A stretch of 32,000 nucleotides of DNA from Kiritimatiella glycovorans (GCF_001017655.1 NZ_CP010904.1:2910001-2942000); one strand, 5' to 3'. Positions 1,527 to 24,977 are shown, counted from the first letter of the stretch. Notes: generated from the sequence alone by a model not told the origin. Numbers and translations are program-made.

Positions 1527-1528
1527 GC

Positions 1529-1996: not shown

Positions 1997-2063
1997 CCAA
2001 CCGGCTCCTCTGCGCCCTCCATCCTGGTTCAGGTTCGTGTCTCATTCTTATTGGCACAGAGGG

Positions 2064-2961: not shown

Positions 2962-3136
2962 CCGATGACACGGATGGGATCTCGAAATCCGAATCGAAGT
3001 CGAAATCGGGATTCATAGAGATCATAATTCGTACGCGTACTCGGAGCGCCGAAGGCGCGATCCCACTTCCCCGATTCAAGTAATTCGAGTACGAGTACCG
3101 CTTCGCTGAGTACGAGTACGAGTACGATATTCCCCC
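2962..3136. repeat. Mosaic intergenic repeat, copy a (modules X - hexamer arm - core - hexamer arm - partial Y)
   Basis: It shares long identical blocks with the loci at 7566, 12755, 16792, 22829, 23372 and 24886. The core GGAGCGCCGAAGGCGCGATCCCACTTCCCC lies at 3043-3072. Confidence 0.8.
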
Positions 3137-3151
3137 GGGTGTCCCCATGTT

Positions 3152-3991
3152 GAACTCAGGCGCGCGGATGCGGGGATCGGACTGCTAATCGAAAGGCTCG
3201 AAACACGCGGCGTACTCGACGATACGATGATCATCGTCACCGGCGATCAGGGTCCCGGATTTATCCGCAGCAAACCGTATCTCTACGACGCCGGCATTCG
3301 CGTGCCGCTGGTCATCCGCTGGCCGAAAGGGGTGAAGGCCGGACAGCGCCGCGCGGAACCGGTCTCGGCGGTCGATATCGCGCCGACCATTCTCGACGCC
3401 GCCGGGCTGGATATTCCGGAGACCCTGCACGGCCGCTCGTTGCTTCCGCTCTGTGCCGGGGACGAGGTTCCGTGGCGCACGGGCGTCTGCGCCGAGTTCA
3501 CCGCGCACGGATCCGGTCACTATTTCCCCGGACGCACGATCTCCGACGGGCGCTACCACCTGATCCACAACCTCCTCGGCCCCGATACACCGAATCCCTA
3601 CTGGGCCGCCTACGAGCGCGTGCCGCAGAAACACCCCGAGGCGGGCCCGGTCATTGCCGGCGGCGACGAAAAAATGAAACGGGCGCTCGACCGCCTGCGC
3701 CGTCCGCCGGAGTTTGAACTGTACGACCTGGAGGAAGACCCCGGCGAATTCGTCAACCTCGCCGACGATCCGAAATACGCAGGGCTGCTGGAGCGCATGA
3801 AGCATGAACTTCGGGCATGGCAGGAAGAGACCGACGATCCCCTGCGCAAGCCGGAGAATCTCGCCCTCATGACCGAATGGCACCGGGAACTCCTCGCCGA
3901 TAAAACCCCGGTGCGCGGCCACAAACCGAAGTACGCCGTCGCCGAACTCGTCATGCCCGAGTACCGGGCGATGGTGAAACGGCTCAGGTAG
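3152..3991 (+). pseudogene. Sulfatase (arylsulfatase / sulfamidase-like), C-terminal ~55% only; 5'-truncated
   Basis: The in-frame translation from ~3152 reads ...RADAGIGLLIERLETRGVLDDTMIIVTGDQGP...DAGIRVPLVIRWPKG...VDIAPTILDAAGL, matching C-terminal sulfatase blocks. The N-terminal catalytic C/S-x-P-x-R region is absent, and homology ends at the repeat boundary. Confidence 0.75.
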
Positions 3992-4082
3992 CCATATCCG
4001 CAGTCAATGACGGGAAAGCAGGGATGAGAGCGGGGCGTTTCAAGCGCAAAACCGGAGCCGTGTAGTCCGTGTCGCCGGGATT

Positions 4083-4832
4083 CTATTTCGCGGTTTCCCG
4101 GTCGACCCGGAAGGTGTTTCTCTCGGCGATCGCGGACGGATTGCAGACCTCCCGGAAAATCTCATCGCCGTCCGCGCTCTTCCTGTACACGCGCACCCAG
4201 TAGCCCTTGAGCTTGCCGGTGCTTGAGGCGGGCGCGTTGTTCTCCCATACGTAGCCGGGCATCAGCTCCAGGCTCTTCAGCACGACGGGACCGGTGGTAA
4301 CGGTCTTTTCGCCGCCGGCTTCGAGCACCGGCACTTCGATACTGCCGCTCACGTCGAGCATCTTGGCGTCGGCATGCGAGGCGGCTTCCTCCTGCTTATA
4401 GAAGAGCATGTAATCCACACGCAGGTTTCTGAAGTCGTGACCGGACCTGTTTTCGAGGAGCACTTCGTAGCGGTATTCCTCCGCCTCAATAATCAGGCCC
4501 TCCTCTTTCCCCGTCTGCTTACCCGTCTCCTTCTTTTCCACTTCGATCCGGAAATCCATTTGCGACCGGAAGCTCTCATCCCGGGCCCATGTGCGTATAT
4601 ATTCACGGTCTTTTTCGCAAAACGCGCTCAGAGGCGCGGAGAGTCGGCGCCCGTCGGATCGTCTCACATTCACCATGTCCCGCCGCTCATTAAACGAAAG
4701 AATCTCGGCTTCGACAGTGCGACCCTGTGTGTCGCGGAACGTGTGCATTTCCGCGTCTGCGGCAATACAAGGCTGGAAGGCCGTAATCACAGCCAGCGAA
4801 AGCAGGCGAAGTATATGAGTATGAGCGCGCAT
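4083..4832 (-). CDS. Secreted hypothetical protein with an N-terminal SHD1-like (SLA1 homology) domain
   Basis: The ATG at 4832 has a GGAGGG RBS 8 nt upstream. It has a signal peptide (MRAHTHILRLLSLAVITAFQPCIAADA). The segment FRDTQGRTVEAEILSFNERRDMVNVRRSDGRRLSAPLSAFCEKDREYI resembles the SHD1 domains common in PVC bacteria (recognised from memory). Confidence 0.6.
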   Translation of the reverse strand: MRAHTHILRLLSLAVITAFQPCIAADAEMHTFRDTQGRTVEAEILSFNERRDMVNVRRSDGRRLSAPLSAFCEKDREYIRTWARDESFRSQMDFRIEVEKKETGKQTGKEEGLIIEAEEYRYEVLLENRSGHDFRNLRVDYMLFYKQEEAASHADAKMLDVSGSIEVPVLEAGGEKTVTTGPVVLKSLELMPGYVWENNAPASSTGKLKGYWVRVYRKSADGDEIFREVCNPSAIAERNTFRVDRETAK

Positions 4833-4891
4833 CCGGTTACCCTCCACAGTTCACCCGTTCAATATCCGCTTTCGGGAGGGAATGCAAGCCG

Positions 4892-6384
4892 GGAAGTGTC
4901 CCGTTGACTGTTGAAACTTGAAGGCGGTCTCCTGAGCGTCCATGTTGGACGCTCGGGGCAAACCAACCCGAAAGGAGACCGCCATGAGTGACAATAGCGT
5001 CCTTGAAGCCCTTGGACAAGTTGAACCGTCTGCAGCAGGAGATGTTTTCCGTGACTGGCTGCGTGGTGAAATGCGAACCCTGATCGCCGATATTCTGGCT
5101 GAAGAGGTCACAGAACTGTGTGGTCCGGCCTACAAGCCGGCAGGGGACAGAGGCTGCCGACGTGCCGGCGGAACCCGCGTAGGACTTCGAATTGACGGTA
5201 TTGATGAGGAGATCCGCAAGCCGCGTGTACGTCGCCATGAGGCAGACACATCGAAGGAGGTCAGGCTTAAAAGTTACGACGCGGTCAACAGGGCCGACGA
5301 CCTTCGTGACCGTATCTTGCGTGCCACAGCTGCCGGAGTCAGTTCACGTGATCAGAAAACCTTGTATCCCGATTCAGCGCCCGGACGCAGCAGGGTTTCC
5401 CGCGCCTGGATTGTCGAGGGCCGACAGCGCATACAGAAGCTCCGTGACCGCGACCTGAAGTCCGAGAGGTTCTTCTGCATGCTGCTGGACGGCATTGTAC
5501 TGTCCGAGGATCTCAGCGCCATTGTGGGGCTGGGCATTACGCTGGACGGCCGCAAAGTTATGCTGGATTTTGAAATAGGCGCACAGGAATCGACAGAAGT
5601 GTGTGACGCATTGCTCGACCGGCTTGTCCACCGCGGTCTTGAGTTCGAGGGCGATCCGTTGGCGGTTCTCGACGGTTCTCGGGCACTTCATAACAGCGTC
5701 TTGAAGCATTTTCCGCGAGCGCGCATTCAACGATGCCTGGTGCATAAGGAACGAAATATTAAGCGTTGTCTCTCCAGGCGTCATCACGGCAGCGTGAGCG
5801 ACCTTTTCAAGCGTCTCCGCTCCGTGGAAGGCGAAGAAGCCGGACGTGAAGCACTCGCCGATCTGGAACGCTTTCTGAGCCGGCACAGCCACAAGGCCCT
5901 GGAATCCCTGCACGAGGCCGGTGAGGAGCTCATTACGGTTCACAAGCTGAATGCGCCGTCCACTCTACACACCACGTTGACGAACACAAACTGCATCGAG
6001 AACCCGTTCCGAAACACACGCGCAAAAATCGGGCGGGTGAAGCGTTGGCGCGCAGAGACGGATCAGGCGGAACGCTGGCTGGCCTATTCGCTTCTGAGGG
6101 CCGAGAAAGGGTTCCGTCGAATCAAAGGCTATCGTCAGATCCCGGTGCTTTTGAAATCCCTGGGCTGGCCATCGGAAGCTGTTGAGGCGTCGCTCCGCTC
6201 CGCCCTTGGCCCTCCGGGCCATCCCGCCTCCGGCGGGAACGGGCTCCACTCCACGACGCCTCACCCCCAGGCAGAGAGCGAAGCGAACTGCCGAACAGGG
6301 ACTGGACAAGTGAATGACAAGGAACTACATCGAAATGAAGACCGAGACCGCCAACGAGTTTCAACAGGATTCGGGACATCCCCG
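4892..6384 (+). mobile_element. IS256-family (Mutator-type) insertion sequence, 1493 bp, apparently intact
   Basis: 40-bp imperfect terminal inverted repeats (30/40 identical, no indel) starting at 4892 and ending at 6384. An 8-bp direct repeat GCAAGCCG flanks it at 4884-4891 and 6385-6392. Confidence 0.85.
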
Positions 6385-6459
6385 CAAGCCGGACCCCCTC
6401 ACGGGTCTCAGCAACAGGAGGCGCAGCTGTGGTACCGGGCCATGGGAATCCGGACCTGA
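4984..6459 (+). CDS. IS256-family transposase (Mutator family, DDE)
   Basis: The ATG at 4984 has an AAGGAG RBS. The family signature is present (RIQRCLVHKERNI, LLDGIVL, VLDGSRAL, NCIENPFRN). Conserved sequence ends near ...GYRQIPVLLKSL (~6165). The ORF then continues ~98 low-complexity codons through the right IR into flanking DNA. Confidence 0.8.
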   Translation: MSDNSVLEALGQVEPSAAGDVFRDWLRGEMRTLIADILAEEVTELCGPAYKPAGDRGCRRAGGTRVGLRIDGIDEEIRKPRVRRHEADTSKEVRLKSYDAVNRADDLRDRILRATAAGVSSRDQKTLYPDSAPGRSRVSRAWIVEGRQRIQKLRDRDLKSERFFCMLLDGIVLSEDLSAIVGLGITLDGRKVMLDFEIGAQESTEVCDALLDRLVHRGLEFEGDPLAVLDGSRALHNSVLKHFPRARIQRCLVHKERNIKRCLSRRHHGSVSDLFKRLRSVEGEEAGREALADLERFLSRHSHKALESLHEAGEELITVHKLNAPSTLHTTLTNTNCIENPFRNTRAKIGRVKRWRAETDQAERWLAYSLLRAEKGFRRIKGYRQIPVLLKSLGWPSEAVEASLRSALGPPGHPASGGNGLHSTTPHPQAESEANCRTGTGQVNDKELHRNEDRDRQRVSTGFGTSPQAGPPHGSQQQEAQLWYRAMGIRT

Positions 6460-7370
6460 TGGGAACCGCCGTTTTTCTGCCCGCCGATCATATTGAAGAG
6501 TTCATCCACCGCCGTATCGGCGATGGTCCGGTAGTCCTGTTCCGCCACAATAACCCGGCGCGCCGGATAAGGCTCCCCCTGCCACTCGTCGAAGCAGCCG
6601 ACCAGGGTCTCGCTTTCGCGGAGCACCGGGGCGCGCGGACGGGTGTACTCGCGGACGTCGTACTGGGAGGAGCCCAGTATCGCCAGGGGTTCCCCCCTGA
6701 GATCGACGTTCTCCTCCCCGCCGCTCCCGCCGATCCATCCCAGCCCGCGCGCGGAGAGTTCCTCTGACGCGCCTTTCAGTCGCATCTTCTCCACCGGGTT
6801 GTCTTCGGTACGGAAGAGCAGCACGAACCGCGACGCGCCCGCCTCCACGCAATGGCGGACCAGCTCACGGGCGGCCTCCTCGTTCGCGCTCGTCACGGTC
6901 ACGCCCTGAACGTCCTCCGGCGGCACATCGAGAAAGATCAGAGGAAATTCGCGCTTTTTCAGCGGCGCGAGCGCAGAGAGGTCATGGATATGGCGCGGAT
7001 TCACGATGGCGCCGGCCGAGAGACCCTGACTCATACGCGCCGCCGTGCGGTCGAACGTCTCCTGATCCTTGTGATGAACGGCGATCGACAGATCGTACCC
7101 GTGCATCGCCGCCCGGCGGGAGGCGAACTCGGCGGCCTTCCAGTCCACCATCACCCCGAGCGAAGGGACAATGAACCAGAGAATTTCGGCCCGGCCCTGC
7201 ACGAGAAATCGCGCGGCCAGGTTCGGCTGATACTGCATGCGTGCGGCGACCTCCTGGATGCGGCGGCAGGTATCGGGCCTCAGTCGCGGATCGTTGCGCA
7301 GGGCCCGGGAGACCGTCGAAGCGTTTACGTCGCACTCCAGCGCCACGTCGTAGAGCGTGATCTTTGCCAT
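6408..7370 (-). CDS. LacI/GalR-family transcriptional regulator
   Basis: N-terminal HTH (ITLYDVALECDVNASTVSRALRN) plus a periplasmic-binding-fold sugar-sensor body. A GAGGAGG RBS precedes the ATG at 7370. Confidence 0.85.
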   Translation of the reverse strand: MAKITLYDVALECDVNASTVSRALRNDPRLRPDTCRRIQEVAARMQYQPNLAARFLVQGRAEILWFIVPSLGVMVDWKAAEFASRRAAMHGYDLSIAVHHKDQETFDRTAARMSQGLSAGAIVNPRHIHDLSALAPLKKREFPLIFLDVPPEDVQGVTVTSANEEAARELVRHCVEAGASRFVLLFRTEDNPVEKMRLKGASEELSARGLGWIGGSGGEENVDLRGEPLAILGSSQYDVREYTRPRAPVLRESETLVGCFDEWQGEPYPARRVIVAEQDYRTIADTAVDELFNMIGGQKNGGSHQVRIPMARYHSCASCC

Positions 7371-7565
7371 TCTTTCCTCCTCGCAGTGGTTGTGGATGCG
7401 TCCCGGGTGCCGGCCCCCTGGCGGGCCGGACCGAACCCCCGGAACAGGATTACCATCCTAAGAATATATAAAACCGATACAACCTTTTTTTGTGCTCTGT
7501 ATGCACATTATTAATGACGTTTATAAATAGTATAGGTTGCAAGCGTAAGCGCAGATAGTATTTTT

Positions 7566-7668
7566 CAGGAATTCGAGTACGAGTACCGCTTCGCTGAGTA
7601 CGAGTAGGCGTACTTTGTGACGCGAGCAAATTTTAGTTCCAGCCACTAAGACGCCTGTACTTCCCCCG
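7566..7668. repeat. Mosaic intergenic repeat, copy b (core tail - hexamer arm - full Y module)
   Basis: GGAATTCGAGTACGAGTACCGCTTCGCTGAGTACGAGTA...GTGACGCGAGC...CCAGCC is nearly identical to the reverse complement of 12755-12840 and to 3078-3125. Confidence 0.8.
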
Positions 7669-7879
7669 ATACTACAGCAGCTTCAGAGCCGTAGAGAACC
7701 AATTATATAATGTTACTTATCTGATCGTGATTTCTGTATTATGCGGGCCTTATACCCCGGCCGCGCCCTTTCCGCGCGGATTCAAACGGGGCGAGGCAGC
7801 GATAAACGCTCAGCTTATGCTTTCATGGGCCGCACGGATGCTTTATGAAGGTTTTTTTCGGCAGAAGAGGAGAGAATCG

Positions 7880-8866
7880 ATGAGTGAAGCATTTCCGGGA
7901 CTGGGAGAGAGCGCCGCGGCCCTGGGGCTGACGGCGCTGGAGGTCACGTCCGACGGCCGGTTCGCGGCGGGACGCGACGGGGTGTGCGCGGTGGCGCGGA
8001 CCGGCGACGGGAAGGTCGAGTTTATCGGCTTCGACTCCCATACGCTGGCCACGGTCAATTCGGCCATGGGATACCCCGCCTGCTATCCCGTGCACCCGGT
8101 CCGGCTCGATAAGCCGGTCGAGGCCGTGCTGATGGACCTCGACGGGACCACGGTGCACAGCGAGACGTTCTGGATATGGATCATTCAGCTGTCGACGGCC
8201 AGTCTGCTCGGCGACGACTCCTTCGAGCTCGAGGACGAGGATATTCCGTATGTCTCGGGGCACAGCGTGTCGGAACACCTGCAGTATTGCGTAACCAAGT
8301 ACTGCCCGGACCGCAGCGTCGAAGAGGCGCGCGACTATTACTTCGAGCATACCCGCCGCGAGATGCAGGCCGTGCTCGACGGGACGGGGCGGACGGAGGC
8401 CTTCGTCCCGAGCCCCGGGATCAGGGAGTTTCTTCTCGAATTGAAATCGCGCGGCGTCGCCCTGGGGCTCGTGACGTCGGGGCTCTACGAAAAGGCCTGG
8501 CCCGAAATCGTGTCCGCCTTCCGCAAACTGGAACTGGGCGACCCGCTCGAATTCTACGATGCGATCATCACCGCCGGATTTCCGATGCAGCAGGGACGTT
8601 CGACGGGAACCCTGGGCGAACTCTCTCCCAAGCCGCACCCGTGGCTGTACGCCGAGGTCGCGCGCGTGGGGCTCGGGATTCCCTTCGACCGGCGCGCGCA
8701 TGTGATCGGGATCGAAGACAGCGGGGCCGGGGTATGCTCGATCCGCCTCGCCGGCTTCGAGCCGTTCGGCATCGCGGGCGGAAACATCGAGGGAAGCGGC
8801 ACCCGGGGGCTGTGCAGAGAATTCTGTGCGGACTTTGAAGGTATTCTGGCCGCGATCGATTCGTGA
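7880..8866 (+). CDS. HAD-superfamily hydrolase (subfamily IA-like) with a ~90-aa N-terminal extension of unknown function
   Basis: The ATG at 7880 has a GGAGAG RBS. HAD motifs are present: DLDGTTV (motif I), LVTSG (II), K...PHP (III) and IEDSGAG (IV). Confidence 0.8.
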   Translation: MSEAFPGLGESAAALGLTALEVTSDGRFAAGRDGVCAVARTGDGKVEFIGFDSHTLATVNSAMGYPACYPVHPVRLDKPVEAVLMDLDGTTVHSETFWIWIIQLSTASLLGDDSFELEDEDIPYVSGHSVSEHLQYCVTKYCPDRSVEEARDYYFEHTRREMQAVLDGTGRTEAFVPSPGIREFLLELKSRGVALGLVTSGLYEKAWPEIVSAFRKLELGDPLEFYDAIITAGFPMQQGRSTGTLGELSPKPHPWLYAEVARVGLGIPFDRRAHVIGIEDSGAGVCSIRLAGFEPFGIAGGNIEGSGTRGLCREFCADFEGILAAIDS

Positions 8867-8878
8867 TCGCGCGGCCTG

Positions 8879-8907
8879 TTGACTCCGCGGGGCGGACGCG
8901 GTAATAT
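8879..8907 (+). promoter_or_regulatory. Near-consensus sigma70-type promoter (TTGACT - 17 nt - TAATAT)
   Basis: -35 TTGACT at 8879-8884, an exact 17-nt spacer, and -10 TAATAT at 8902-8907. It sits in an otherwise GC-rich intergenic region and faces rarA. Confidence 0.55.
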
Positions 8908-8913
8908 GATGCT

Positions 8914-9166
8914 ACAGGCGGCAGAGCGGAGCGGACGCTTCGGCAGCTTTGCCGATGGTGTGAACGGCAGCGGCACACGGGATGTACGGCTTGGCCCTGC
9001 CCGGTACGCGGACATGCAAATTCTCTGACCCTTTAGCCACTGAAAGGGAGCTCGGAGTCCGGCAGTGGCCGTATACCCCTGAAGGGGAAACGATAAACCG
9101 CCGGCAGAGCACCCACCTTGTTACCGTGGTCCAGAGATGAGCATAACAGTCGGCCGGGCGGGGCCT
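8914..9166 (+). ncRNA. Candidate structured non-coding RNA or long structured 5' leader of rarA (family unassigned)
   Basis: About 250 nt lie between the promoter and the rarA ATG with no convincing ORF. Several local hairpins are present (GTGTG..CACAC, GCCACTG..CAGTGGC, CCCC-TGAA-GGGG). The segment ends with GGCC-GGGCGG-GGCC followed by T5. Confidence 0.3.
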
Positions 9167-9170
9167 TTTT

Positions 9171-11103: not shown

Positions 11104-11147
11104 CCAACCGGGGAGGATCTTCCCGATGAAACTTCCGGAGGAGCACC

Positions 11148-12719: not shown

Positions 12720-12754
12720 GTTCTTCGTAGATTTTGGTGAACTACTGGAATCCC

Positions 12755-12978
12755 GGCGGCTGGATTAGAAATCCGCTCGCGTCACAACGTACGCGTACTC
12801 GTGCTCAGCGAAGCGGTACTCGTACTCGAATTCCTTGAATCGGGGGAGTGGGATCGCGCCTTCGGCGCTTCGGGTACGAGTACGGGTACGAGTACGAGTA
12901 AGAGTAAGAATGAGGGTGCGAATTATGTTCACCCCCCTCGATTACCCTTCATGGTCTTCATGGTGAATCCCATTCTCT
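12755..12978. repeat. Mosaic intergenic repeat, copy c (Y - arm - core - hexamer array - X-like stub - G-run - nonamer array), reverse orientation relative to copy a
   Basis: The core reverse complement lies at 12845-12873, with the inner hairpin GCGCC-TTC-GGCGC at 12856-12868. GTACTCGTACTCG (12817-12828) faces CGAGTACGAGTA (12889-12900). Confidence 0.8.
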
Positions 12979-13003
12979 CCCCGCCGCTTTCGGGCCTCTG
13001 CGG

Positions 13004-14038
13004 CTACTCCCTCCCGCGACCGTGGGCTGCGGGGGCCCCGGCGATGTACCTCGCCAGATCCTCGATCCTGACCTGTCCCTGCGCGCGGTCGCGTTCGTCC
13101 ATCAGCACCGCGACCGGCTGACGATTTTTCCGCAGTTTGCTGAAGGCCTGCTGGAGGGTCGCGTCGGCCCGGATCCGTACGGCCTTGCGCACGAGCGGCC
13201 GCACCGGATCGTCCGGCCCCGTCTCCGGATCCATGAGATCGCAGAGATGCAGCGTGCCGATCACGTTATTCCGGCGTCCCCGGAATACCGCGCAGCGGTT
13301 GCGGCCGCTCTTCTGCAGGAGCCGTTCCGCGTCGCGCACCGCGGACTCGACCGACACCGCCGGCACCCGGTCGAGCGGGGTCATCAGCCGCCGCGCGGGT
13401 ATGCGCCGCATCGCGATCACGTTCTCCATCATCTGGTTCTGGTGGGGCGTCAGGGCACCGTGGCGGATGCCCTCGGAAAAGTACATCCGCAGGCGCTGCG
13501 GCGAGAGCTGCAGCAGATCGCGGTGCGGGTCGGCGGGGGAGGTGCGCAGCAGCGCGCGGAAGAGCAGGCGCAGCGGAGTGGTCAGAGGACGGCATACGGC
13601 CAGGGATATCCGCAGGACCATCGCGCCGCGCGTCATCAGCTCCTCCGCCCGCGTCCGGAACAGGTTCTTGGGCAGCAGTTCGGCGAACAGGAACATGGGC
13701 GGCGTGAGCACGAGCGTCGCGGCGATCTCGGCGTTCCATGGGATCAGGCCGAACAGAACCCGCCCCCCTCCGGCGCCGACGCCGTGCGCCAGGAAGGAGG
13801 CCGTCACGGTCTGAGCCGCGAGGTAGTTGACCACGTTGTTGCAGAGCAGGACCGTAAAGACGAAGCGCTGGGGTTCGCGCAGCACCTCCTCCAGCCAGCG
13901 CGCGCGCCGCACGCCGTGGCGCGCGCGGTAGCGCAGGTGGATGCGGCTGACCATGTATCCGCCGGTCTCGCTCCCCGAGTAAAAGGCGGAGAGGATCAGC
14001 GCGCTCAGCAGTTTGACCCATGCGTCCCAGGCGGTCAT
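13004..14038 (-). CDS. DUF21 (CNNM) transmembrane plus CBS-pair protein, lacking the CorC_HlyC C-terminal domain
   Basis: The start at ATG 14038 overlaps the stop of the upstream paralogue (ATGA). The N-terminus ...SAFYSGSETG is typical of DUF21. CBS region: RRLMTPLDRVPAV... Confidence 0.75.
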   Translation of the reverse strand: MTAWDAWVKLLSALILSAFYSGSETGGYMVSRIHLRYRARHGVRRARWLEEVLREPQRFVFTVLLCNNVVNYLAAQTVTASFLAHGVGAGGGRVLFGLIPWNAEIAATLVLTPPMFLFAELLPKNLFRTRAEELMTRGAMVLRISLAVCRPLTTPLRLLFRALLRTSPADPHRDLLQLSPQRLRMYFSEGIRHGALTPHQNQMMENVIAMRRIPARRLMTPLDRVPAVSVESAVRDAERLLQKSGRNRCAVFRGRRNNVIGTLHLCDLMDPETGPDDPVRPLVRKAVRIRADATLQQAFSKLRKNRQPVAVLMDERDRAQGQVRIEDLARYIAGAPAAHGRGRE

Positions 14039-15566: not shown

Positions 15567-16787
15567 ATGATCGATTCCATGCTCGACAGGAAAGGCACGT
15601 ATGCCGCGCCGCTGATGGCCGGCCTCCTGCTGGTCGGGGGGATCTTCGGCTGCGGACGCGGCCCCGGCGATGCGGAATATGAAAAGGGCATGCGGGCGAT
15701 CAGGGAAGGGCGGCTCGTCCGCGCCCGCGCCCATCTCGAAAAAGCGGTCCGCCAGCGGGCCGGACGCGGCGACACCGGACCCGCCTGCAATCGCCTCGGT
15801 ATGGTCCTCTGGGAACTCGGCGCCCCCGGGGACGCAATCGAAGCGTTTCAGAAAAGCCGTACCCGGTCGCCGGATTCCTTCGACGCCCTCTACAATCTCG
15901 GATACGCGCTGGTCTCCGAAGGGCGGGCGGAACACGCCGAAGAGGTGCTTACCGAGGCGGCGCTGGTACACCCCCAGGACGCGCAGTCGCTCCAGCTCCT
16001 CGGCGCCGCCTTCCTCGAACAGGGCAAGTGGGACCGCGCCCGGCAGGCCTACGAACGGGCCCTGCGCCGCCGCCCGGACGACCCCGCCCTCCTGTGCGGG
16101 CTGGCCCTGGCGGAGTACGGCGCACAGGATCCCTCGTCGGCGCTGAAACGCCTTCAGGCGCTGACGAAAGGGCACCCCGGCTACGCCCCGGGTCATTTCA
16201 ACCTCGCCGCCGTGTACCGCTTCGGCTTCAACCGGTCCGGCGATGCCGACCGCGCGCTGAACGCCTACCTGGAGGCGGCGGAGGGCCCGGACGCACGGGA
16301 ACGCGCCGCCCGCCTCCGGCGCGGCGAAACCCCGCCCCCCCGCCGCGCCCGGCGCACGCGGGAAGAGGATCCGCTGGGTCTCGAACCCCGGCCGGAACGC
16401 GACCGGGCCGCCGCGACCGAGGCCTTCGGCAGGGCGTTCCGCCACTACGCGGCCGGCGATTTCGACGAAGCGGCGCAATGGTACACCCGCGCAGTGGAAC
16501 ACGACGAGACGTACGAGGAGGCGTTCTACAACCTGGGGCTCACCTACCACAAACTGGACCGCCTGGACGCCGCGGCGGCCGCCTACCGTCGCGCGCTCGA
16601 ACTGAACCCCGCCTCAGCCCGCGCACGCTACAACCTGGCGCTCGTCCACTATCAGCGCGGCAACCTGCGCGAAGCACAACGCGAAGCCCGGGCCGTCCTC
16701 GCCCAGCACCCCGACCACCGCTCCTCCGAACACCTCATCCGGCTCATCCGTGAGAACGGGGAGGAAAGGGACGGTGAAGAGGAATAG
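15567..16787 (+). CDS. TPR-repeat lipoprotein
   Basis: Lipobox LVGGIFGC near the N-terminus and multiple TPR-like units (AxxxxxxAL..P....A..NLG). Confidence 0.7.
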   Translation: MIDSMLDRKGTYAAPLMAGLLLVGGIFGCGRGPGDAEYEKGMRAIREGRLVRARAHLEKAVRQRAGRGDTGPACNRLGMVLWELGAPGDAIEAFQKSRTRSPDSFDALYNLGYALVSEGRAEHAEEVLTEAALVHPQDAQSLQLLGAAFLEQGKWDRARQAYERALRRRPDDPALLCGLALAEYGAQDPSSALKRLQALTKGHPGYAPGHFNLAAVYRFGFNRSGDADRALNAYLEAAEGPDARERAARLRRGETPPPRRARRTREEDPLGLEPRPERDRAAATEAFGRAFRHYAAGDFDEAAQWYTRAVEHDETYEEAFYNLGLTYHKLDRLDAAAAAYRRALELNPASARARYNLALVHYQRGNLREAQREARAVLAQHPDHRSSEHLIRLIRENGEERDGEEE

Positions 16788-16791
16788 CAAA

Positions 16792-16868
16792 GAATCGGGA
16801 TCGCGTTCGGGATCGGGAGTCACCATGAAGCTCATGAAGCACGGCGGGGGTGCTTAGCCCGCCCCCGC
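16792..16868. repeat. Mosaic intergenic repeat, reduced copy f (degenerate core plus CATGAAGNN x2 plus GC hairpin)
   Basis: GAATCGGGATCGCGTTCGGG...TCACCATGAAGCTCATGAAGCACGG matches parts of 12838-12875 and 22846-22880. GCGGGGG..CCCCCGC forms a hairpin between the convergent gene ends. Confidence 0.6.
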
Positions 16869-16885
16869 GAATGGCGCCCATGACC

Positions 16886-17758: not shown

Positions 17759-17963
17759 TTTTTTCCGGTCCAACACGCTCGCTCCTCCCGGGTTTACCGT
17801 CGGTCTTCCGGGGCACGATTGTGCACGCACCGCGCTGAAGTGCAAGCGCGACGGGCGCATGCTCACATTTACACACACTTACGCTTTGATTTGCCGAGCC
17901 GCCTGTGTTCATATCGTGCGCTCAGGTTTTCGCAGATACGGGTAAACTTAACCCCTGATCATC

Positions 17964-19058: not shown

Positions 19059-19258
19059 AGGACGATCTCTTAGGCCGCCGCTCTTATCCGTGAAATTGGT
19101 GTCGTCCGTGGTCGTCCCCGAAATTAAACAATCCGAGCCGAACCTCCGTGGTGCTTTCCGCGTTTTACCTCACGCAACCCTCCCCATCCGCTTTCCCTTT
19201 TTTCATTTCTCAACTTCGTGCCGATGACGTACATTCGGCACTCAATCCCGCAAGGAGC

Positions 19259-20180
19259 ATGAGAATCTTGGATACGTCAACACTGCTCGAGCTTTACAGA
19301 CCCATCTGGACGGCCCGGCGCGTGGATGAAATGGAACAGGCGCTCGCCCACCGCGGCGAGGCGTTCTTCTTCATCCCCGGCTCCGGTCACGAGGCCGCGG
19401 CGGCGCTGGCGCCGCACCTGACCGCCGCCGACTGGCTGCACTGCCACTACCGCGACAAGGCGCTCGCCCTGGCGCGCGGCGTCAGCGTGGAGTCGATGTT
19501 CGCCGCCCTGCTCGCGCGCGACCCGTCCGGCAGCGCGGGGCGCCGTATGCCCGATTTCCCCTGCGATCCGGAACTGAACATCCTCAGCACCCCCACGCTC
19601 GTCGGCAACAACGCCCTGCAGGCGGCCGGCGTCGCGGCGGCGGTGAAGGACCGCGAGGGCGCGCCGGTGGTCTACTGCGGGCTGGGCGACGGCGCGACGC
19701 AGGAAGGCGAGTTCTTCGAGGCGGTGGCGGAGGCCGTCCGCGCGACCCTGCCGGTGCTCTTCGTCGTTCAGGACAACCGCTACGCGCTGTCGACACTCAC
19801 CGCAGGCCAGACGTTCTACTCGACGCCCGACGGCAACCCCGAAACGTTCTACGGTCTCCCGATCCGCCGCGTCGAGGGCGCGGACGTCGCGGCGTGCCAC
19901 GAGACCTTCGGCGCGGCCGTGGCCGAGGCGCGCGAACACCGCCGCCCGCAGATCGTCTGCATGCGCTGTGAGCGGCTGCAGAGTCATACGAACGCCGACG
20001 ACCATACCGCGTACCGCACGGAGGAGGATCTGGCCGAGGCGGCGGAGCACGGCGATCCCCTGCGCAACCTGGAGCGTATGCTGATCGACGCGGGCGAGGA
20101 GGCGTCGCGGCTTCGGGCGATCGAGGAGGAATGCGAACAGGCCGTGCAGGACGCCCTCGCCGCCGCCCGTGCCGGGGCGG
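19259..20180 (+). other. Domain: E1 alpha, TPP-binding (E1_dh type)
   Basis: TPP motif GLGDGATQEGEFFEAVAEAVRATLPVLFVVQDNRYA, and the loop SHTNADDHTAYRTEED equivalent to HSTSDD..YR of branched-chain/pyruvate E1 alpha. Confidence 0.8.
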
Positions 20181-22609
20181 AACCGGAAGCGGCGCTCAGC
20201 GCGAAGAAGCCGCTGCCGGTCGAGCTGACCGACCCGAAACGCGAATATCGCGGCACGGGAGAACGCAAGCTCACCATGATCGCCGCCCTGCGCGCGGCCC
20301 TGCGCGTGCGGCTGGAGGAGGAAGACGCGGCGTACGTCTGGGGTGAGGACCTCGAAGACCCCAAAGGCGACGTCTTCGGGCTCGCGAAGGGACTCAGCTC
20401 CGCCTTCCCGGGCCGCGTGCGCAACGCCCCGCTGAGCGAGGCCACCATCGTCGGCGCCGCCGTCGGCCAGGCGCTCGCGGGCCGCCGGCCGGTCGCGTGT
20501 CTGCAGTTCGCCGACTTCCTGCCGCCCGCGTTCAATCAGATCGCCTCGGAGCTGGGCACGATGTACTGGCGCACCAACGGGCGCCTGGAGGCGCCGGTGA
20601 CCGTGCTCTCGGTCTGCGGCGGATATCGCCCCGGCCTCGGGCCGTTTCACGCGCAGACGCCCTCCGCCGTGGCCGCCCACCTGCCGGGAATCGACGTCTT
20701 TCTGCCCTCGACCGCGGCCGACGCGGCGGGGCTGCTGCTGGCGGCGCTGCGCTCGGACCGGCCGTCGATCTTCTTCTATCCCAAAAACCTCCTGAATGAC
20801 CGCAGCGTCGCGACGTCGGAGGACATCGACCGCCACTTCGTTCCGATCGGGAAGGCGCGAATCGCGCGGGCGGGCGGCGACCTGACGCTCGTCGCGTGGG
20901 GCAGCACTATGCCCACGGCCCTTCGTACGGCGGAGGCCGTCGAGCAGGCCGGCCTCTCGGTCGAGGTCGTCGATCTGCGTACGCTCTCGCCGTGGGACCG
21001 CGAGGCGGTATTTGAATCCACCTCGAAAACCGGCCGGCTGCTGGTGATCGATGAAGACCACCAGACCTGCGGGATGGCGGGCGAGGTCTGCGCCGCGGTG
21101 GCGGAGGCGCAGGGCGAACGGGTTCGCGTGGCGCGGCTGGGCGCCGCCGACGCGTATGTCCCCTACCACTTCGGCAACCAGCTCGACGTGCTGCCGTCGT
21201 TCCGGCCCGTGCTCGAAAAGGCTGCGGAGATGCTCGATTGCTCCGTGCGCTGGAACCGGCGGGCCGAGGAGGAGGAAGGGCGGGTGACGGTCAAGACGCT
21301 GGGATCGAGTCCCTCCGACGAGACGGTGAAGATCGTCGAACTGCACGCCGCCGCGGGCGAGGCGGTCGAAGAGGGCGCGCCGCTGGCGTCGGTCGAGGCG
21401 GACAAGGCGACGATGGAGATCGAGGCGCCGCTGGCGGGTACGGTGGAGAAGGTGCTGCTTTCGGAAGGCGACGAGGTGGACGTCGGGGCACCGCTGCTGA
21501 CGCTGGTGCCGTCGGTGGAGGCCGCGGCGCGGCCGCAGACGACCGACGATCCCGGCATCCCGGTGGTCGAAAAGCAGCGCAGCGTGACGGAGGCGGCGGC
21601 CCCGGCGACGCAAGGACACGAGCGCGAGAGCGCCCCGACGGTGATCTCATCGATCTGCTCCGCCCTGGGATCGCAGCTGAAGACGAACGATGAGCTCGTG
21701 GAAATCTGTCCCGGCTGGTCGCCGGACGACGTCGTACAGCGTACGGGGATCCGGAAGCGGCACTGGATCGGCGAAGGCGAATCGGCGCTCTCGCTCGCCG
21801 TGGACGCCTGTCACAAACTCTTTGAACGCGAGGGCGTGACGGTCAACGACTTCGACGCCATCATCTGCAGCACGGGGACGCCGCCCTCGACCACCCCGTC
21901 GCTGGCCTGCCGGATCCTGAAGGAGCTCAGTCCCGAGGAGGGCGAGACGCTGATCCCGGCGCACGACATCAATGCGGCGTGTTCGGGCTACCTGTACGCC
22001 CTGCAGCAGGCCTGCGACATGCTCGAGCACGACCCCGGCGCGCGGATCCTGCTGGTGACGAGCGAGACGCTCTCGCCGATGCTGAATAAGGATGATCCGG
22101 GCACGTTTTTCCTGTTCGGTGACGCCGCGACCGCTTCGCTGGTCTCGCGGGAACAGCGCGGGGGCAACCTCAACCTGCGGGTCGGGCGACCGGTACTCTC
22201 GGCGATGGGGGCCGAGGAGAAGGTGCTCTACGTGCCCTCGCTGCAGAGCGGGACGTTCATGGAGATGGACGGGCGGAGCGTATTCCGGATCGCCGTGCGG
22301 AAGATGATCGACATGCTCGACCGCGCCTGTGCGCAGGAGGGCGCGACGGTCGACGACCTTTCCCTGATTGTCCCGCACCAGGCGAACGGGAGGATTATTG
22401 AGGCGATACGCAAGGCCATCAAGTTTCCGACGGATAAGGTGTTCTACTACATTCGCGATTACGGCAACACCTCGTCGAACACCATCCCGCTCAGCCTCGA
22501 AGCGCTGCCCTCCGACCTCCCGCCCGGCGGGAAGATCGGGCTGACGGCATTCGGCGGCGGCTTCACCTTTGCCGCCGGCGTGGTGGAGACGCTCGAGCGG
22601 CCGCAATAA
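19259..22609 (+). CDS. Multidomain fusion protein (1116 aa): 2-oxoacid dehydrogenase E1 alpha (TPP) + E1 beta + lipoyl domain + FabH-type 3-oxoacyl synthase III
   Basis: The ATG at 19259 has an AAGGAG RBS. One frame with no stops covers all four homology regions. Details are given in the four domain features below. Confidence 0.85.
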   Translation: MRILDTSTLLELYRPIWTARRVDEMEQALAHRGEAFFFIPGSGHEAAAALAPHLTAADWLHCHYRDKALALARGVSVESMFAALLARDPSGSAGRRMPDFPCDPELNILSTPTLVGNNALQAAGVAAAVKDREGAPVVYCGLGDGATQEGEFFEAVAEAVRATLPVLFVVQDNRYALSTLTAGQTFYSTPDGNPETFYGLPIRRVEGADVAACHETFGAAVAEAREHRRPQIVCMRCERLQSHTNADDHTAYRTEEDLAEAAEHGDPLRNLERMLIDAGEEASRLRAIEEECEQAVQDALAAARAGAEPEAALSAKKPLPVELTDPKREYRGTGERKLTMIAALRAALRVRLEEEDAAYVWGEDLEDPKGDVFGLAKGLSSAFPGRVRNAPLSEATIVGAAVGQALAGRRPVACLQFADFLPPAFNQIASELGTMYWRTNGRLEAPVTVLSVCGGYRPGLGPFHAQTPSAVAAHLPGIDVFLPSTAADAAGLLLAALRSDRPSIFFYPKNLLNDRSVATSEDIDRHFVPIGKARIARAGGDLTLVAWGSTMPTALRTAEAVEQAGLSVEVVDLRTLSPWDREAVFESTSKTGRLLVIDEDHQTCGMAGEVCAAVAEAQGERVRVARLGAADAYVPYHFGNQLDVLPSFRPVLEKAAEMLDCSVRWNRRAEEEEGRVTVKTLGSSPSDETVKIVELHAAAGEAVEEGAPLASVEADKATMEIEAPLAGTVEKVLLSEGDEVDVGAPLLTLVPSVEAAARPQTTDDPGIPVVEKQRSVTEAAAPATQGHERESAPTVISSICSALGSQLKTNDELVEICPGWSPDDVVQRTGIRKRHWIGEGESALSLAVDACHKLFEREGVTVNDFDAIICSTGTPPSTTPSLACRILKELSPEEGETLIPAHDINAACSGYLYALQQACDMLEHDPGARILLVTSETLSPMLNKDDPGTFFLFGDAATASLVSREQRGGNLNLRVGRPVLSAMGAEEKVLYVPSLQSGTFMEMDGRSVFRIAVRKMIDMLDRACAQEGATVDDLSLIVPHQANGRIIEAIRKAIKFPTDKVFYYIRDYGNTSSNTIPLSLEALPSDLPPGGKIGLTAFGGGFTFAAGVVETLERPQ
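20264..21238 (+). other. Domain: E1 beta (transketolase pyrimidine-binding plus C-terminal domains)
   Basis: LTMIAALRAAL...VWGEDL...APLSEATIVGAAVGQALAGRRPVACLQFADFLPPAFNQI...PSTAADAAGLLLAALRSDRPSIFFYPK...VVDLRTLSPWD. Confidence 0.8.
21281..21508 (+). other. Domain: lipoyl-attachment (biotinyl/lipoyl fold), followed by an Ala/Pro-rich linker (21509-21637)
   Basis: LASVEADKATMEIEAPLAGTVEKVLLSEGDEVDVGAPLLTL. The DKA lysine codon is at 21404-21406. The motif is E-x-DKA (lipoyl type), not the biotinyl MKM type. Confidence 0.75.
21638..22606 (+). other. Domain: KAS III / FabH-like condensing enzyme with an intact Cys-His-Asn triad
   Basis: HDINAACSGYLYAL (Cys codon 21980-21982), VPHQANGRI (His 22376-22378), YGNTSSNTIP (Asn 22466-22468), and the C-terminal FGGGFTF. 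Confidence 0.8.
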
Positions 22610-22734
22610 ATTCGCACCCCGAACGGATCAAGCCCGCGGGGCTGCAAAGGGGATGGTGGAAAAGTGAAAAGAAATCGAGACCTCAGCTTTCACCTGTTCC
22701 ACATCTTCATCTCTGATAAAATGCCCCACTTTCC

Positions 22735-22808
22735 GGGCCCGTAGCTCAGTCGGTCAGAGCAGGAGACTCATAATCTCTTGGTCGGGGGTTCGAGTCCCTC
22801 CGGGCCCA
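22735..22808 (+). tRNA. tRNA with anticodon CAT (elongator Met or lysidine-modified Ile2 type; not an initiator)
   Basis: Manual cloverleaf: acceptor GGGCCCG/CGGGCCC, D arm GCTC..GAGC, anticodon stem GGAGA/TCTCT with loop CTCATAA, and T arm GGGGG-TTCGAGT-CCCTC. It is 74 nt with no encoded CCA. Confidence 0.9.
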
Positions 22809-22828
22809 TTCCTTCACACCCCCGCCCC

Positions 22829-23047
22829 GTACTCAGCGAAAATGGGATTCACCATGAAGGCCATGAAGAGCATGAAGGTTGGTTGAGGGGGGGGGACGTA
22901 ATCCGTACTCGCACTCGTACTCGTACTCGTACTCGGAGCGCCGAAGGCGCGATCCCACTCCCCCTGTTCAAGGAACTCGAGTACGAATTATGTTCTCTCT
23001 GAATCCCGGCTTCGACTTCGATCCGGATTTCGAGATCCCATCCGTGT
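22829..23047. repeat. Mosaic intergenic repeat, copy d (partial Y rc - nonamer array x3 - G-run - GTACTC x5 - core - arm - X rc)
   Basis: CATGAAGNN x3 at 22853-22879, five hexamer units (four GTACTC plus one GCACTC variant) at 22905-22934, core at 22935-22963, and the X module (reverse complement of 2969-3034) at 22981-23047. Confidence 0.85.
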
Positions 23048-23056
23048 TCTCTCTTA

Positions 23057-23259
23057 CGCTCGTAGTAGGCCCGCAGGTCCGCGAAGCGGACAAGGGCCGT
23101 TATCTTTCACGCGCCTGGCCTGCCGGAGGGGCAGGCGTGCGGCGCTACTACGAACTTCCTCACGCTCGTAGTAGGCCCGCAGGTCCGCGCAGCAGACAAG
23201 GGCCGTTATCTTTCACGCGCCTGGCCTGCCGGGGGCAGACTTGCGGCGCTACTACGAAC
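23057..23259. repeat. Tandem direct duplication, 2 x ~100 bp units (period 106 bp), each internally self-complementary
   Basis: Units at 23057-23155 and 23163-23259 are ~90% identical. Each is bounded by TCGTAGTAGG...CGCTACTACGA and contains GTCCGC-GAA-GCGGAC and GCCTGCC-GGAG-GGGCAGGC hairpins (unit 1). Confidence 0.85.
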
Positions 23260-23371
23260 GCTTGTCGTCTCCCATCCCGACCCCGGCATCCTCTGTGACC
23301 GCTGTGGTGAATCCCCGTCCCGCCTCTTCCCCGAACGGCTCCACCACAAAAAATTTGCGAAGAACCAAAAA

Positions 23372-23419
23372 GGATCGCGCCTTCAGCCCTCCAAGTACGC
23401 GTACGAATCATGTTCACCC
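23372..23419. repeat. Mosaic intergenic repeat, degenerate core plus X-like stub (copy d2)
   Basis: GGATCGCGCCTTCAGCCCTCCAAGTACGCGTACGAATCATGTTCACCC parallels the reverse complement of 3021-3063 and 12918-12935. Confidence 0.65.
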
Positions 23420-23701
23420 TTGCCCTTTTTCACTCACCTGGCCTCCTGATCCGTGAAGATTGCCGCCCACTAAAAATCCTGCGGATCCAAGGGGAAAATG
23501 ACGCAATGTGCGACCCTCACACTCGAAGAAGATTGTAGCCTGTCAGTCAGCCATTACAATTATCGTCCTTCGCGAATGGGATGCTAGTGTCCGAATGAAA
23601 AAGATGGTGCGCCTGGGCAAACGGGCGGCGCAAGCGGAACCGGAAAAGATGAAAGGCGCGGCAGCAGAGAACGCACACACGAATAAGCAAAGGCAGGTCC
23701 G

Positions 23702-24835
23702 ATGAAAATTCCCGCTGCGATAAACGTACGAACGCTCCTGTGCTTCTTTTTCCTTGTGATTGCGGAGACACACGGGTCGGGCCGGATTAACGACCTCGTT
23801 GCCGGATCCGGACGTCCGGAACCGATCGAGGTCGCGAAAGACGGCCACGGTTTTGTGTACGCACAATCCCGCACCCCTTTCGTCGTTTGGGGTGTAAACT
23901 ACGACCACAATGAGTCCGGCAGGCTGCTGGAGGATTACTGGGATGACGCGTGGCCGGTCGTCAGGGAAGACTTCCGTGAAATGAAGGCGCTGGGCGCGAA
24001 CGTCGTCCGTATCCATCTGCAGACCGGCTCCTTCTTCGAGGACTCGCGTGCCATCTCGAAGCCGGCGTTACAGAACCTTTCGCGTCTGCTTGAGCTTGCG
24101 GAACGGACGGGCCTCTACCTGAATATCACGGGTCTCGGGTGCTATCACAAAGACGAAGTGCCCGCCTGGTACGATGCGATGGAGGAATCCGAGCGCTGGA
24201 AGATTCAAGCGACGTTCTGGGGGGCGGTCGCCGCGACCTGCGCGCATTCTCCGGCGGTCTTCTGTTACGACCTTATGAACGAACCGATTCTGCCCGGGCG
24301 CGACAAGCCTGCCGACGGGTGGCTGGCAGGCGAATTCGGCGGGAAACATTTCGTCCAGTACATCACCCGCGATCTGCGGGGACGCACGCGCAGGGCCGTC
24401 GCCCGCGCCTGGGTAGAAACGCTGACCGACGCGATCCGACGCGGCGACCCGGATTCCATGATCACCGTCGGCGTCATCCCCTGGGCCCATACATGGCCGA
24501 ATGCGAAACCGATCTTCTACTCGCCGGAGGTGCGCGGGCCGCTCGACTTTGCGTCCGTCCACTTTTACCCGCGTAAAGACAAAGTGGAAAAGGCACTGCG
24601 CGCGCTCCAGGTCTACGAGGTCGGCATGCCGCTGGTGATCGAAGAAATGTTTCCGCTGAGGTGCTCCATCGAGGAGATGAATGCCTTCATCGAAGGCTCG
24701 CGCGATATTGCCGACGGATGGATCAGCTTCTACTGGGGAACAACCGCGGAAGAGTACCGGGCCGGGGAACGCGATGCGGCTGCACTAATCAAGGCCGCTT
24801 GGCTGGATTATTTTGCGAACAAAAAAATCCGTTGA
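23702..24835 (+). CDS. Glycoside hydrolase family 5-like (beta/alpha)8 glycosidase, secreted
   Basis: Signal-like N-terminus. Blocks: GANVVRIHL, the acid/base motif YDLMNEP, and the putative nucleophile region LVIEEMF. Confidence 0.75.
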   Translation: MKIPAAINVRTLLCFFFLVIAETHGSGRINDLVAGSGRPEPIEVAKDGHGFVYAQSRTPFVVWGVNYDHNESGRLLEDYWDDAWPVVREDFREMKALGANVVRIHLQTGSFFEDSRAISKPALQNLSRLLELAERTGLYLNITGLGCYHKDEVPAWYDAMEESERWKIQATFWGAVAATCAHSPAVFCYDLMNEPILPGRDKPADGWLAGEFGGKHFVQYITRDLRGRTRRAVARAWVETLTDAIRRGDPDSMITVGVIPWAHTWPNAKPIFYSPEVRGPLDFASVHFYPRKDKVEKALRALQVYEVGMPLVIEEMFPLRCSIEEMNAFIEGSRDIADGWISFYWGTTAEEYRAGERDAAALIKAAWLDYFANKKIR

Positions 24836-24885
24836 GGGGAACCTCCCAACCCCGTGGCCTGTTTAAGAAGCCCCGGCACGCACAC

Positions 24886-24950
24886 CGTTTCGCTGAGTAC
24901 GAGAACGATGTGACGCGAGACGGGTTCAGGTTCGGCCGCTAAGATGCCAG
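24886..24950. repeat. Mosaic intergenic repeat, partial Y module (copy e)
   Basis: CGTTTCGCTGAGTACGAGAACGATGTGACGCGAGA...GGCCGCTAAGATGCC parallels 7588-7657. Confidence 0.65.
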
Positions 24951-24977
24951 TCGTGCCGATTTCTGAATATCGCTTTT

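Follow-up and report, generated by a model that had tools for sequence, protein, structure and literature searches.

Hexamer-armed palindromic repeats in a Kiritimatiella glycovorans genome region, probable gene-less relatives of PF05635 cassettes in uncultured bacteria

A family of modular, palindromic repeats occurs at six loci in a 32,000-nucleotide stretch of the Kiritimatiella glycovorans L21-Fru-AB genome (GCF_001017655.1, NZ_CP010904.1:2910001-2942000; 64% G+C), here called the window, in which positions are counted from the first letter. The loci, designated copies a to f with a fragment d2 beside copy d, are probably full or partial copies of a gene-less, non-autonomous repeat, miniature relatives of small cassettes in which arms of the same tandem hexamers enclose a gene of the PF05635 (S23p) family. 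As part of the same reading, and judged from sequence comparison, the window family is likely to be part of a broader class, distributed among Planctomycetota-like and other environmental bacteria, in which the arms enclose either a short centre or a PF05635 gene. An initial annotation, made from the DNA sequence alone, had described the repeat family; that the arm motif is common to many other bacteria, and that it bounds PF05635 cassettes there, were not part of it.

Self-BLAST of the window, repeat finding and profile searches returned related sequence at all six loci named in the initial annotation, with copy f as a weak partial match, and the DNA at the given coordinates agrees with its earlier description. 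Copies a and c align in inverted orientation over 97 nt at 93% identity (3030-3126 vs 12788-12884, E 1.6e-31), as do c and d over 81 nt at 91% (12820-12900 vs 22906-22986), b and c over 109 nt at 80% (7567-7675 vs 12727-12835), and d2 and a over 44 nt at 89% (23372-23415 vs 3020-3063). Copies a and d share 66 nt at 91% in direct orientation (3029-3094 vs 22921-22986), and e and c share 60 nt at 72% (24895-24954 vs 12741-12800). A separate module, X, is inverted between a and d (2968-3037 vs 22978-23047, 70 nt, 91%), and its orientation relative to the core is opposite in these two copies. Leave-one-out profiles, in which the tested copy was excluded from the model, recovered copy e as module Y (E 1.5e-11) and copy f, weakly, as module Z (29 nt, E 2e-4), and the profile search found no additional significant copy within the window.

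Alignment by hand and with MAFFT defines a basic unit that runs, from its outer part to the centre, through GAACATAATTC, (GTACTC)2-6 and a 44-nt centre (GGAGCGCCGAAGGCGCGATCCCACTyCCCCnnTTCAAGnAAyTC), and continues beyond the centre as (GAGTAC)1-2, the spacer CGCTTCGCT and (GAGTAC)3. On either strand the GTACTC hexamers come first, and after them stands a GAA-looped G+C hairpin (GCGCC-GAA-GGCGC on one strand, A-GCGAAGC-G on the other); the centre enclosed by the arms is short and non-palindromic. The number of hexamers per arm ranges from 1 to 6 across the window copies, and both the hexamer arrays and arrays of nonamers were reported by Tandem Repeats Finder. Outside the arms come modules X, distal Y and Z, whose combinations differ among a, b, c, d, d2 and e. 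The alignments agree with the mosaic build that had been described, X, core, Y and Z varying by copy and by orientation, and such shuffling of the combination and orientation of modules, together with internal units that vary in number, is also a feature of bacterial interspersed mosaic elements (BIMEs) and of BOX-like elements. Folding of copies a, c and d recovered, on both strands, the two structures that had been proposed, an inner hairpin (GCGCC-GAA-GGCGC) and a closing stem (GTACTC/GAGTAC), with z-scores of -2.9 to -4.2 and 0-2 of 200 shuffles folding equally well. Terminal inverted repeats, as in miniature inverted-repeat transposable elements (MITEs), are represented by the junctions GAACATAATTC+(GTACTC)n and (GAGTAC)n+GAATTATGTTC, each found among a, c, d and d2; the two outer motifs, GAACATAATTC and GAATTATGTTC, occur together in no single window copy.

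The arm of this unit is found far beyond the window. A metagenome scan with GTRCTCGTRCTCAGCGAAGCGGTRCTCGTRCTC returned at least 120 contigs, which form 86 sequence groups of 48-68% G+C; the locus counts and rates given here are among the matches listed. The arm of the class reads (GTRCTC)n, A-[short hairpin]-G, (GTRCTC)n, followed by a variable centre and a mirrored (GAGYAC)n array, and the window copies share this layout. The query-type arm, (GTRCTC)2-AGCGAAGCG-(GTRCTC)2, is common to the window and the metagenome loci; the exact 33-mer lies in copy c at 12795-12827 and in copy a at 3087-3125 on the reverse strand, in both cases with a mirrored arm across the 44-nt centre. The longest identity with copy a extends to 44 nt and is confined to arm and spacer. 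Within 250 nt of the motif, an inverted GAGYAC array is present downstream in 59/121 cases vs 12/112 upstream, and the centre in between is a variable 14-108 nt. Planctomycete hallmark Pfam families are present at some of the loci (DUF1559 three times, BBP7 and N_methyl), and a set of 2.9 million viral contigs does not contain the motif.

The two arms of these elements vary together. Among 37 dereplicated elements with mirrored arms, 70 of the 90 hexamer pairs are perfectly complementary, and the paired positions read A:T in 46 cases, G:C in 28, G:T in 7 and A:C in 5. Three hexamer types (GTACTC, GTGCTC and GTAATC) appear in mirrored order, as in GTGCTC GTGCTC GTAATC / centre / GATTAC GAGCAC GAGCAC. 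Every spacer has the form A-[hairpin]-G, and the stems, 2-7 bp long, differ in sequence yet stay self-complementary (AGCGAAGCG, AGTGAAACG, AATGAAATG, AGCCGCTTGCGGCG, AGTCCGCCGCGGCGGACG and others). GCGAAGC and GCGCAGC, both with a GNA loop, are the commonest spacers, and GCGNAGC is a known, very stable GNA-loop DNA mini-hairpin (PMC13037366, PMC3201870). Array length changes as well, near-identical contigs differing in the number of 6-nt and 21-nt units. One abundant gene-less family within the class (L104, L111, L117, L054, L112 and L124) has a 96-nt centre, several copies per 10 kb and outer inverted repeats such as GTTCTTCAGGAATTATTGTGG ... CCACAATTATTCCTGAAGAGCC; it carries well-kept promoter-like boxes, TTGCGG-N18-TATACT and TTGGGC-N17-TATAAT, that point into the GAGTAC arm.

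The strong hairpins predicted on both strands raise the alternative that the copies are functional structured RNAs kept by selection at each site, as bidirectional terminators, 3'-end stabilisers, RNase III sites or small RNA genes, rather than selfish or mobile DNA. Their settings lend this some weight, since convergent gene ends flank three of the window copies and many of the metagenome ones and, beside the motif, gene ends number 80 vs 60 starts. Spacer stems covary, some spacer loops are of the RNA-typical GNRA (GTAA, GTGA) or CTTG kinds, one metagenomic core has promoter-like TTGCGG-N18-TATACT boxes, and the stems of S23p intervening sequences (IVSs) are RNase III substrates (PMC4990558). 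Against it, the window repeats match no Rfam family at the gathering score or even at E<=10, in keeping with the earlier remark that they could not be assigned to a known family, and 20 metagenome loci gave no Rfam match at the gathering score. The listed elements are intergenic and show no orientation bias to neighbouring genes (downstream 26 gene starts vs 41 ends; upstream 34 vs 39). Mismatches of the G:T and A:C kinds are equally rare in the arms, and neither strand is therefore favoured as RNA. Copies a, c, d and e have no T-run of an intrinsic terminator, the sole terminator-like site being at fragment d2; the mosaic, truncated and inverted combinations (b, d2 and e) and the truncated gene by copy a are unlike site-specific RNAs; and GNA triloops, a hallmark of stable DNA hairpins, are the most frequent of the spacer loops. 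We consider a selected RNA function unlikely as the explanation of the family. Of the two classes offered by the initial annotation, the one resembling repetitive extragenic palindromic (REP) sequences, BIMEs and MITEs is the one supported, and the family of structured RNAs is not favoured, given the equivalence of the strands and the lack of a consistent gene orientation. Two further roles at the listed loci were rejected: positions of the motif inside real genes proved to be artefacts of open reading frame (ORF) extension (in L017, for example, the kinase domain begins past the motif), and a promoter for the downstream gene was discarded for want of any orientation bias and of a -10 box in the window core.

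What recurs beside the arm is a single gene family. At ~24 of 120 listed loci (~20%), a PF05635 gene (S23p, a four-helix bundle) or a fragment of one lies 36-250 nt from the motif, and only 2 PF05635 genes lie more than 1 kb away; among 113 neighbouring ORFs, no transposase or other non-PF05635 gene recurs. The cassettes share one layout, (GTRCTC)n-hairpin-(GTRCTC)n, 13-46 nt, an ATG and a gene of ~120 codons, then (GAGYAC)n-CGCTTCGCT-(GAGYAC)n, with forward arrays upstream of the gene in 20/24 and reverse arrays downstream in 21/26. Their PF05635 proteins are diverse in sequence, and one matches the solved S23p pentamer structure 2GSC (E 6e-11). Intact, frameshifted, half-deleted and fragmentary PF05635 genes are all found between the same arms, and these states form a decay series towards the short centres. 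PF05635 ('four helix bundle protein') is a large, multi-copy family to which, to our knowledge, no function has been assigned; its members include Avd, the nucleic-acid-binding protein of diversity-generating retroelements. Tandem cassettes with shared arms occur in L120 (2100-3220) and L048 (4260-4830), where the ORFs read through the hexamer arrays and have tails like EHEHRFAEHEH, and annotated proteins of such tandem cassettes may carry repeat-encoded extensions.

The layout of arms plus PF05635 gene matches that of the inverted-repeat-bounded S23p IVSs of 23S rRNA. In S23p-encoding IVSs their terminal inverted repeats pair into a 28-bp stem that is cut by RNase III, and the IVSs are viewed as selfish elements for which mobility has been proposed, with an origin and movement mechanism unexplained since ~1990 (PMC4990558). 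The full-length relatives in metagenomes, a PF05635 gene of ~120 codons inside stem-forming terminal inverted repeats, resemble the IVSs of Coxiella burnetii and Leptospira in just these respects, and inverted repeats able to form a long stem are seen both in the folds of a, c and d and in the arm complementarity of the relatives. The differences lie elsewhere. The elements described here stand between ordinary genes and not in helices of 23S rRNA (the window copies lie between protein genes or by a tRNA, and the window contains no rRNA, which distinguishes them by location only); their inverted repeats are built of tandem hexamers and hairpin spacers; and they occur in multiple copies, often gene-less ones, with no PF05635 sequence at all in those of the window.

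The conservation of the arm allows a further alternative, in which the hexamer arrays are sites for a sequence-specific DNA-binding protein (an iteron-plus-hairpin HUH origin or nick site, or a nucleoid or regulatory platform), binding would be the conserved function and palindromy would be secondary. GTRCTC and A-[hairpin]-G are conserved across very different genomes in which the centres and outer modules are not, a constraint that a plain stem would not need; a hairpin with adjacent short tandem repeats resembles Rep/HUH origins; and the associated protein family is the one that includes Avd. However, no HUH, Rep or other candidate gene recurs beside the motif, and the arms covary so as to keep their complementarity, with three hexamer types allowed. 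A primary role as binding arrays is therefore, in our estimate, improbable. Both this explanation and selected RNA function could be compatible with an origin of the repeats as gene-less relatives of the PF05635 cassettes.

One reverse-strand frame is open through all copies (..SRHxVRVLVLSEAVLVLEFLESGEWDRAFGA(ST)n..DYVPPP..FMxFMVNPI), and this could be taken to mean that the repeats are decayed fragments of a duplicated protein gene or are real small ORFs. Every internal period (6, 9 and 21 nt) is divisible by three, and gene callers have placed ORFs over such repeats. In the tetratricopeptide repeat (TPR) gene of the window, moreover, a core-like stretch of 31 nt on the minus strand (16011-16040; 26/31 identical) encodes FLEQGKWDRA; over its ten codons, 3 of 4 differences from copy d are synonymous third-position changes, and 0 of 200 shuffled windows reach its score. 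This stretch could be chance, or could hint at the origin of the core. The frame across the copies translates to LVLSEAVLVLEFLESGEWDRAF, which, searched as a profile, gave two kinds of match. One consists of three UniParc ORFs with adjoining accession numbers (P0241, P0242 and P0244) that contain the same core, module X or the tail of copy a, in differing sequence; the other consists of short ORFs of unrelated metagenomes containing LVLVLSEAVLVL, the translation of (GTACTC)2-AGCGAAGCG-(GTACTC)2. The search yielded neither a Pfam domain nor a real protein family; its matches were short ORFs lying on the same DNA repeat in many organisms. In copy d a stop codon stands 9 nt before the core and there is no start codon, the copy c ORF (12801-13121) extends over the 3' end of the CNNM gene, and coding sequence does not account for the presence of this DNA in both orientations, its arms inverted. 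A coding origin is highly improbable.

The same UniParc ORFs bear on copy number. As P0241, P0242 and P0244 carry repeat parts of different sequence, there must be further copies outside the window, and these probably lie in the same genome; the possibility raised in the initial annotation that the window holds the only copies, as a local duplication, is not supported. Its other caution, that the modules might be pieces of one known insertion sequence (IS) or gene, fares no better: derivation from the IS3 element, the IS256-like element or the group II intron of the window was rejected because the modules fall outside the boundaries of those elements, and the IS ends are unrelated. Elsewhere the family-specific modules were elusive. 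The core, X, Z and distal Y were found in none of the searched sets outside K. glycovorans sequence, and the part held in common is arm plus spacer. Plasmid and phage collections searched by BLAST gave hexamer-array matches of up to 31 nt and otherwise nothing, and tblastn with a PF05635 protein found nothing in plasmids at E<=1e-8. The exact 22-nt core is in no metagenome or viral contig, and genome representatives yielded one chance match in a Burkholderiales coding region. The nearest syntenic relative (L002, with RNase Y 65% identical) shows no trace of the repeats, and metagenome contigs with near-identical IS3 copies have unrelated flanks. The hexamer arrays were undescribed in the literature searched by sequence string and for planctomycete repeats.

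Among described intergenic repeats, the closest parallels are structural. REP sequences, BIMEs and REP doublets forming hairpins (REPINs) are likewise short, multi-copy extragenic palindromes, often at gene ends and in mosaics of both orientations, and in REPINs two inverted units give a longer hairpin; here, in contrast, the arms are tandem hexamers of variable number. Two super-families of REP sequences are defined by a GTAG or CGTC tag at the foot of a 20-40 nt stem-loop (PMC3733652). Neither tag is present in the window copies, whose arms and hairpins read (GTACTC)n-GGA-GCGCCGAAGGCGC and A-GCGAAGC-G, and the search for a cognate REP-associated tyrosine transposase (RAYT, TnpA-REP type) found no such gene in the window or among the 113 ORFs beside the motif at the listed loci. 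BOX elements of Streptococcus pneumoniae have the modular form boxA-boxB(n)-boxC, with complementary ends that give a stem-loop, and are intergenic with no transposase of their own. The repeats described here share the modular build, the variable internal units, the complementary end modules, the intergenic position and the lack of an own transposase, but are unrelated in sequence and come from another phylum; their 6-nt and 21-nt units lie inside the arms, and a gene-bearing form exists. MITEs such as the Correia elements of Neisseria are ~100-300 bp long, with terminal inverted repeats and many dispersed copies, and may affect transcripts through hairpins or internal promoters. Size (~100-300 bp), terminal inverted repeats, many dispersed copies and possible effects on transcripts are points of likeness; the differences are that inspection by eye showed no clear target-site duplication and that no transposase-bearing parent IS was found, the only recurrent cargo being PF05635. 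No autonomous parent IS with the same ends is apparent, since no transposase recurs near the motif and the ends of the IS3 and IS256-like elements of the window are unrelated.

Several observations weigh against the derivation of the window copies from PF05635 cassettes. Inspection by eye of the flanks of elements with clear outer repeats gave no clear target-site duplication or empty site, so that transposition is something we infer; a possible 7-nt duplication was seen at L078 only, and in the window copies the outer boundary is indistinct. Six-frame translations of the window contain no PF05635 gene or remnant, and the link between window and cassettes therefore runs only through the shared arm and spacer, which are partly of low complexity. 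The exact 22-nt core has no other copy in the searched genome representatives or metagenomes, which may reflect either a small number of core copies or the lack of the source genome in those sets, and the K. glycovorans origin of P0241, P0242 and P0244 is deduced only from their adjoining UniParc numbers. As to the wider class, the metagenome loci were chosen by the motif itself, which makes their frequencies conditional on that choice, and their assignment to Planctomycetota-like bacteria draws on the few hallmark Pfam families (DUF1559 three times, BBP7 and N_methyl).

Descent from gene-bearing cassettes nevertheless remains our preferred reading of the window repeats, and it suggests how they could have arisen. 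The short forms would be internal-deletion, miniature derivatives of the cassettes, spread or copied to new intergenic sites by a trans-acting factor, possibly a PF05635 protein. Slippage and recombination between hexamer arrays may then have produced the mosaics, truncations such as copy b and the truncated sulfatase gene by copy a. Arms transcribed from either side would fold into a long, perfect stem, which could terminate the transcript, stabilise it or undergo RNase III cleavage. A bolder proposal, which we put forward tentatively, is that the hexamer-array palindromes are the ends of unrecognised, widespread small mobile cassettes of Planctomycetota-Verrucomicrobiota-type bacteria, whose sole gene is S23p/Avd-like. 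The IVSs of 23S rRNA might then be the special case that landed in rRNA and the K. glycovorans repeats the gene-less miniatures, with the PF05635 protein perhaps promoting copying by recognising the hexamer and GNA-hairpin arms in the form of RNA or of single-stranded or cruciform DNA.

Copy c (12727-12985, minus strand) is the most complete. Read on the plus strand, it is composed of distal Y (12727-12788), the hexamers GTACGC GTACTC GTGCTC (12789-12806), the spacer AGCGAAGCG (12807-12815), two GTACTC (12816-12827), the core (12828-12871), six GAGTAC-type hexamers (12872-12907), the GAATTATGTTC junction (~12908-12930) and module Z, with its nonamers and G-run, to 12985. Copy a (2966-3156, plus strand) begins with module X (2966-3030) and a left arm of GTACGC GTACTC (3031-3042), followed by the core (3043-3086), in which the GCGCC-GAA-GGCGC hairpin spans 3046-3058; its right arm consists of two GAGTAC (3087-3098), the spacer CGCTTCGCT (3099-3107) and three GAGTAC (3108-3125), and a family-specific tail, common to the UniParc ORF P0244, extends to ~3156. 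Copy d (22829-23048, plus strand) contains a GTACTCAGCGAA fragment (22829-22840), module Z (22841-22904, with three CATGAAGnn nonamers and G9), five GTACTC-type hexamers (22905-22934), the core (22935-22978), one GAGTAC (22979-22984) and an inverted module X (22985-23048). Three copies, b, d2 and e, are fragments. Copy b (7562-7675, plus strand), which has no left arm and no full core, retains a core-end remnant (TTCAGGAATTC), two GAGTAC (7575-7586), the spacer CGCTTCGCT (7587-7595), GAGTAC GAGTAG GCGTAC (7596-7613) and distal module Y (7614-7675). Fragment d2 (23372-23415, minus strand), opposite in orientation to d, is half a core with a two-hexamer arm and a GAACATGATTC junction, and copy e (24877-24959, plus strand) is a diverged module Y only (CGTTTCGCT GAGTAC GAGAAC ... 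GTGACGCGAG ...). Copy f (16806-16859, plus strand) is the weak, module-Z-like stretch, CACCATGAAGCTCATGAAG with a G-run hairpin.

The ORFs of the window place copies c, f and e between convergent ends, as the initial annotation had stated: c occupies the spacer between the RNase Y gene and the CNNM/CBS gene, f lies between convergent TPR and TraB/GumN genes, and e lies between a glycoside hydrolase family 5 (GH5) gene and a convergent ORF (24978-25643) that has no Pfam support. Copy b is positioned between divergent ORFs, and copy d begins 20 nt past a tRNA-Met gene. The claim that all copies are intergenic holds for these five settings; copy a has no such clean spacer. It sits among clustered mobile elements, with the 5' end of a group II intron ~55 nt away on one side and, on the other, a 5'-truncated sulfatase gene (3155-3991, plus strand) that abuts the end of the copy at ~3155. 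The Pfam Sulfatase match starts at profile position 210 of 301, the first two thirds being missing, and this context, with the break at the end of copy a, suggests rearrangement at the repeat.

The K. glycovorans L21-Fru-AB genome has been remarked for its 75 transposase genes (PMC5148204), and the window has its share of mobile elements. The group II intron is on the minus strand, with ribozyme domains D1-D4 at 2689-2921 and a reverse-transcriptase ORF split into halves (1-475 and 2065-2483) by an inserted IS3-family element (~476-2064, minus strand; orfA 1529-1996, orfB 525-1526), relatives of which are 88-92% identical in metagenomes and have unrelated flanks. On the 5' exon side of the intron, between its 5' end and copy a, a perfect hairpin (GCCAAGC-TTT-GCTTGGC, 2931-2947) could be a group II intron target structure. 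An IS256-like element with a Mutator-family transposase (4897-6378) has 35-nt terminal inverted repeats that are 80% complementary. Between d and d2 lies a tandem duplication (23053-23260) of a 106-nt unit, the copies 93-95% identical, each unit forming a GTCCGC-GAA-GCGGAC hairpin and long-range CGTAGTAG/CTACTACG pairing with no Rfam match. A 6S RNA gene (8991-9168, Rfam 88 bits) is located between HAD hydrolase and MgsA ATPase genes, and a single ORF of 1153 codons (19148-22609) is an unusual fusion of E1 dehydrogenase, transketolase-like, lipoyl-attachment and KAS III (FabH-like) domains.

Palindromic intergenic repeats and S23p intervening sequences are each already known kinds of element. 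The tandem-hexamer arms with GNA-loop hairpin spacers, their wide distribution and their role in bounding PF05635 cassettes outside rRNA were not found in Rfam or in the searched literature. For annotation, the arrays explain many spurious short ORFs (LVLVLSEAVLVL, EYEYEY, STSTST), and for metagenome assembly they are likely break points. For the biology of the family, an arm composed of a hexamer array, a GNA-loop hairpin and a second hexamer array in many uncultured bacteria bounds PF05635 genes that sit at ordinary positions in the chromosome, and the probable gene-less miniatures of that arm in K. glycovorans, a cultured and fully sequenced organism, would provide concrete DNA and RNA substrates for studying PF05635 binding and cassette movement.

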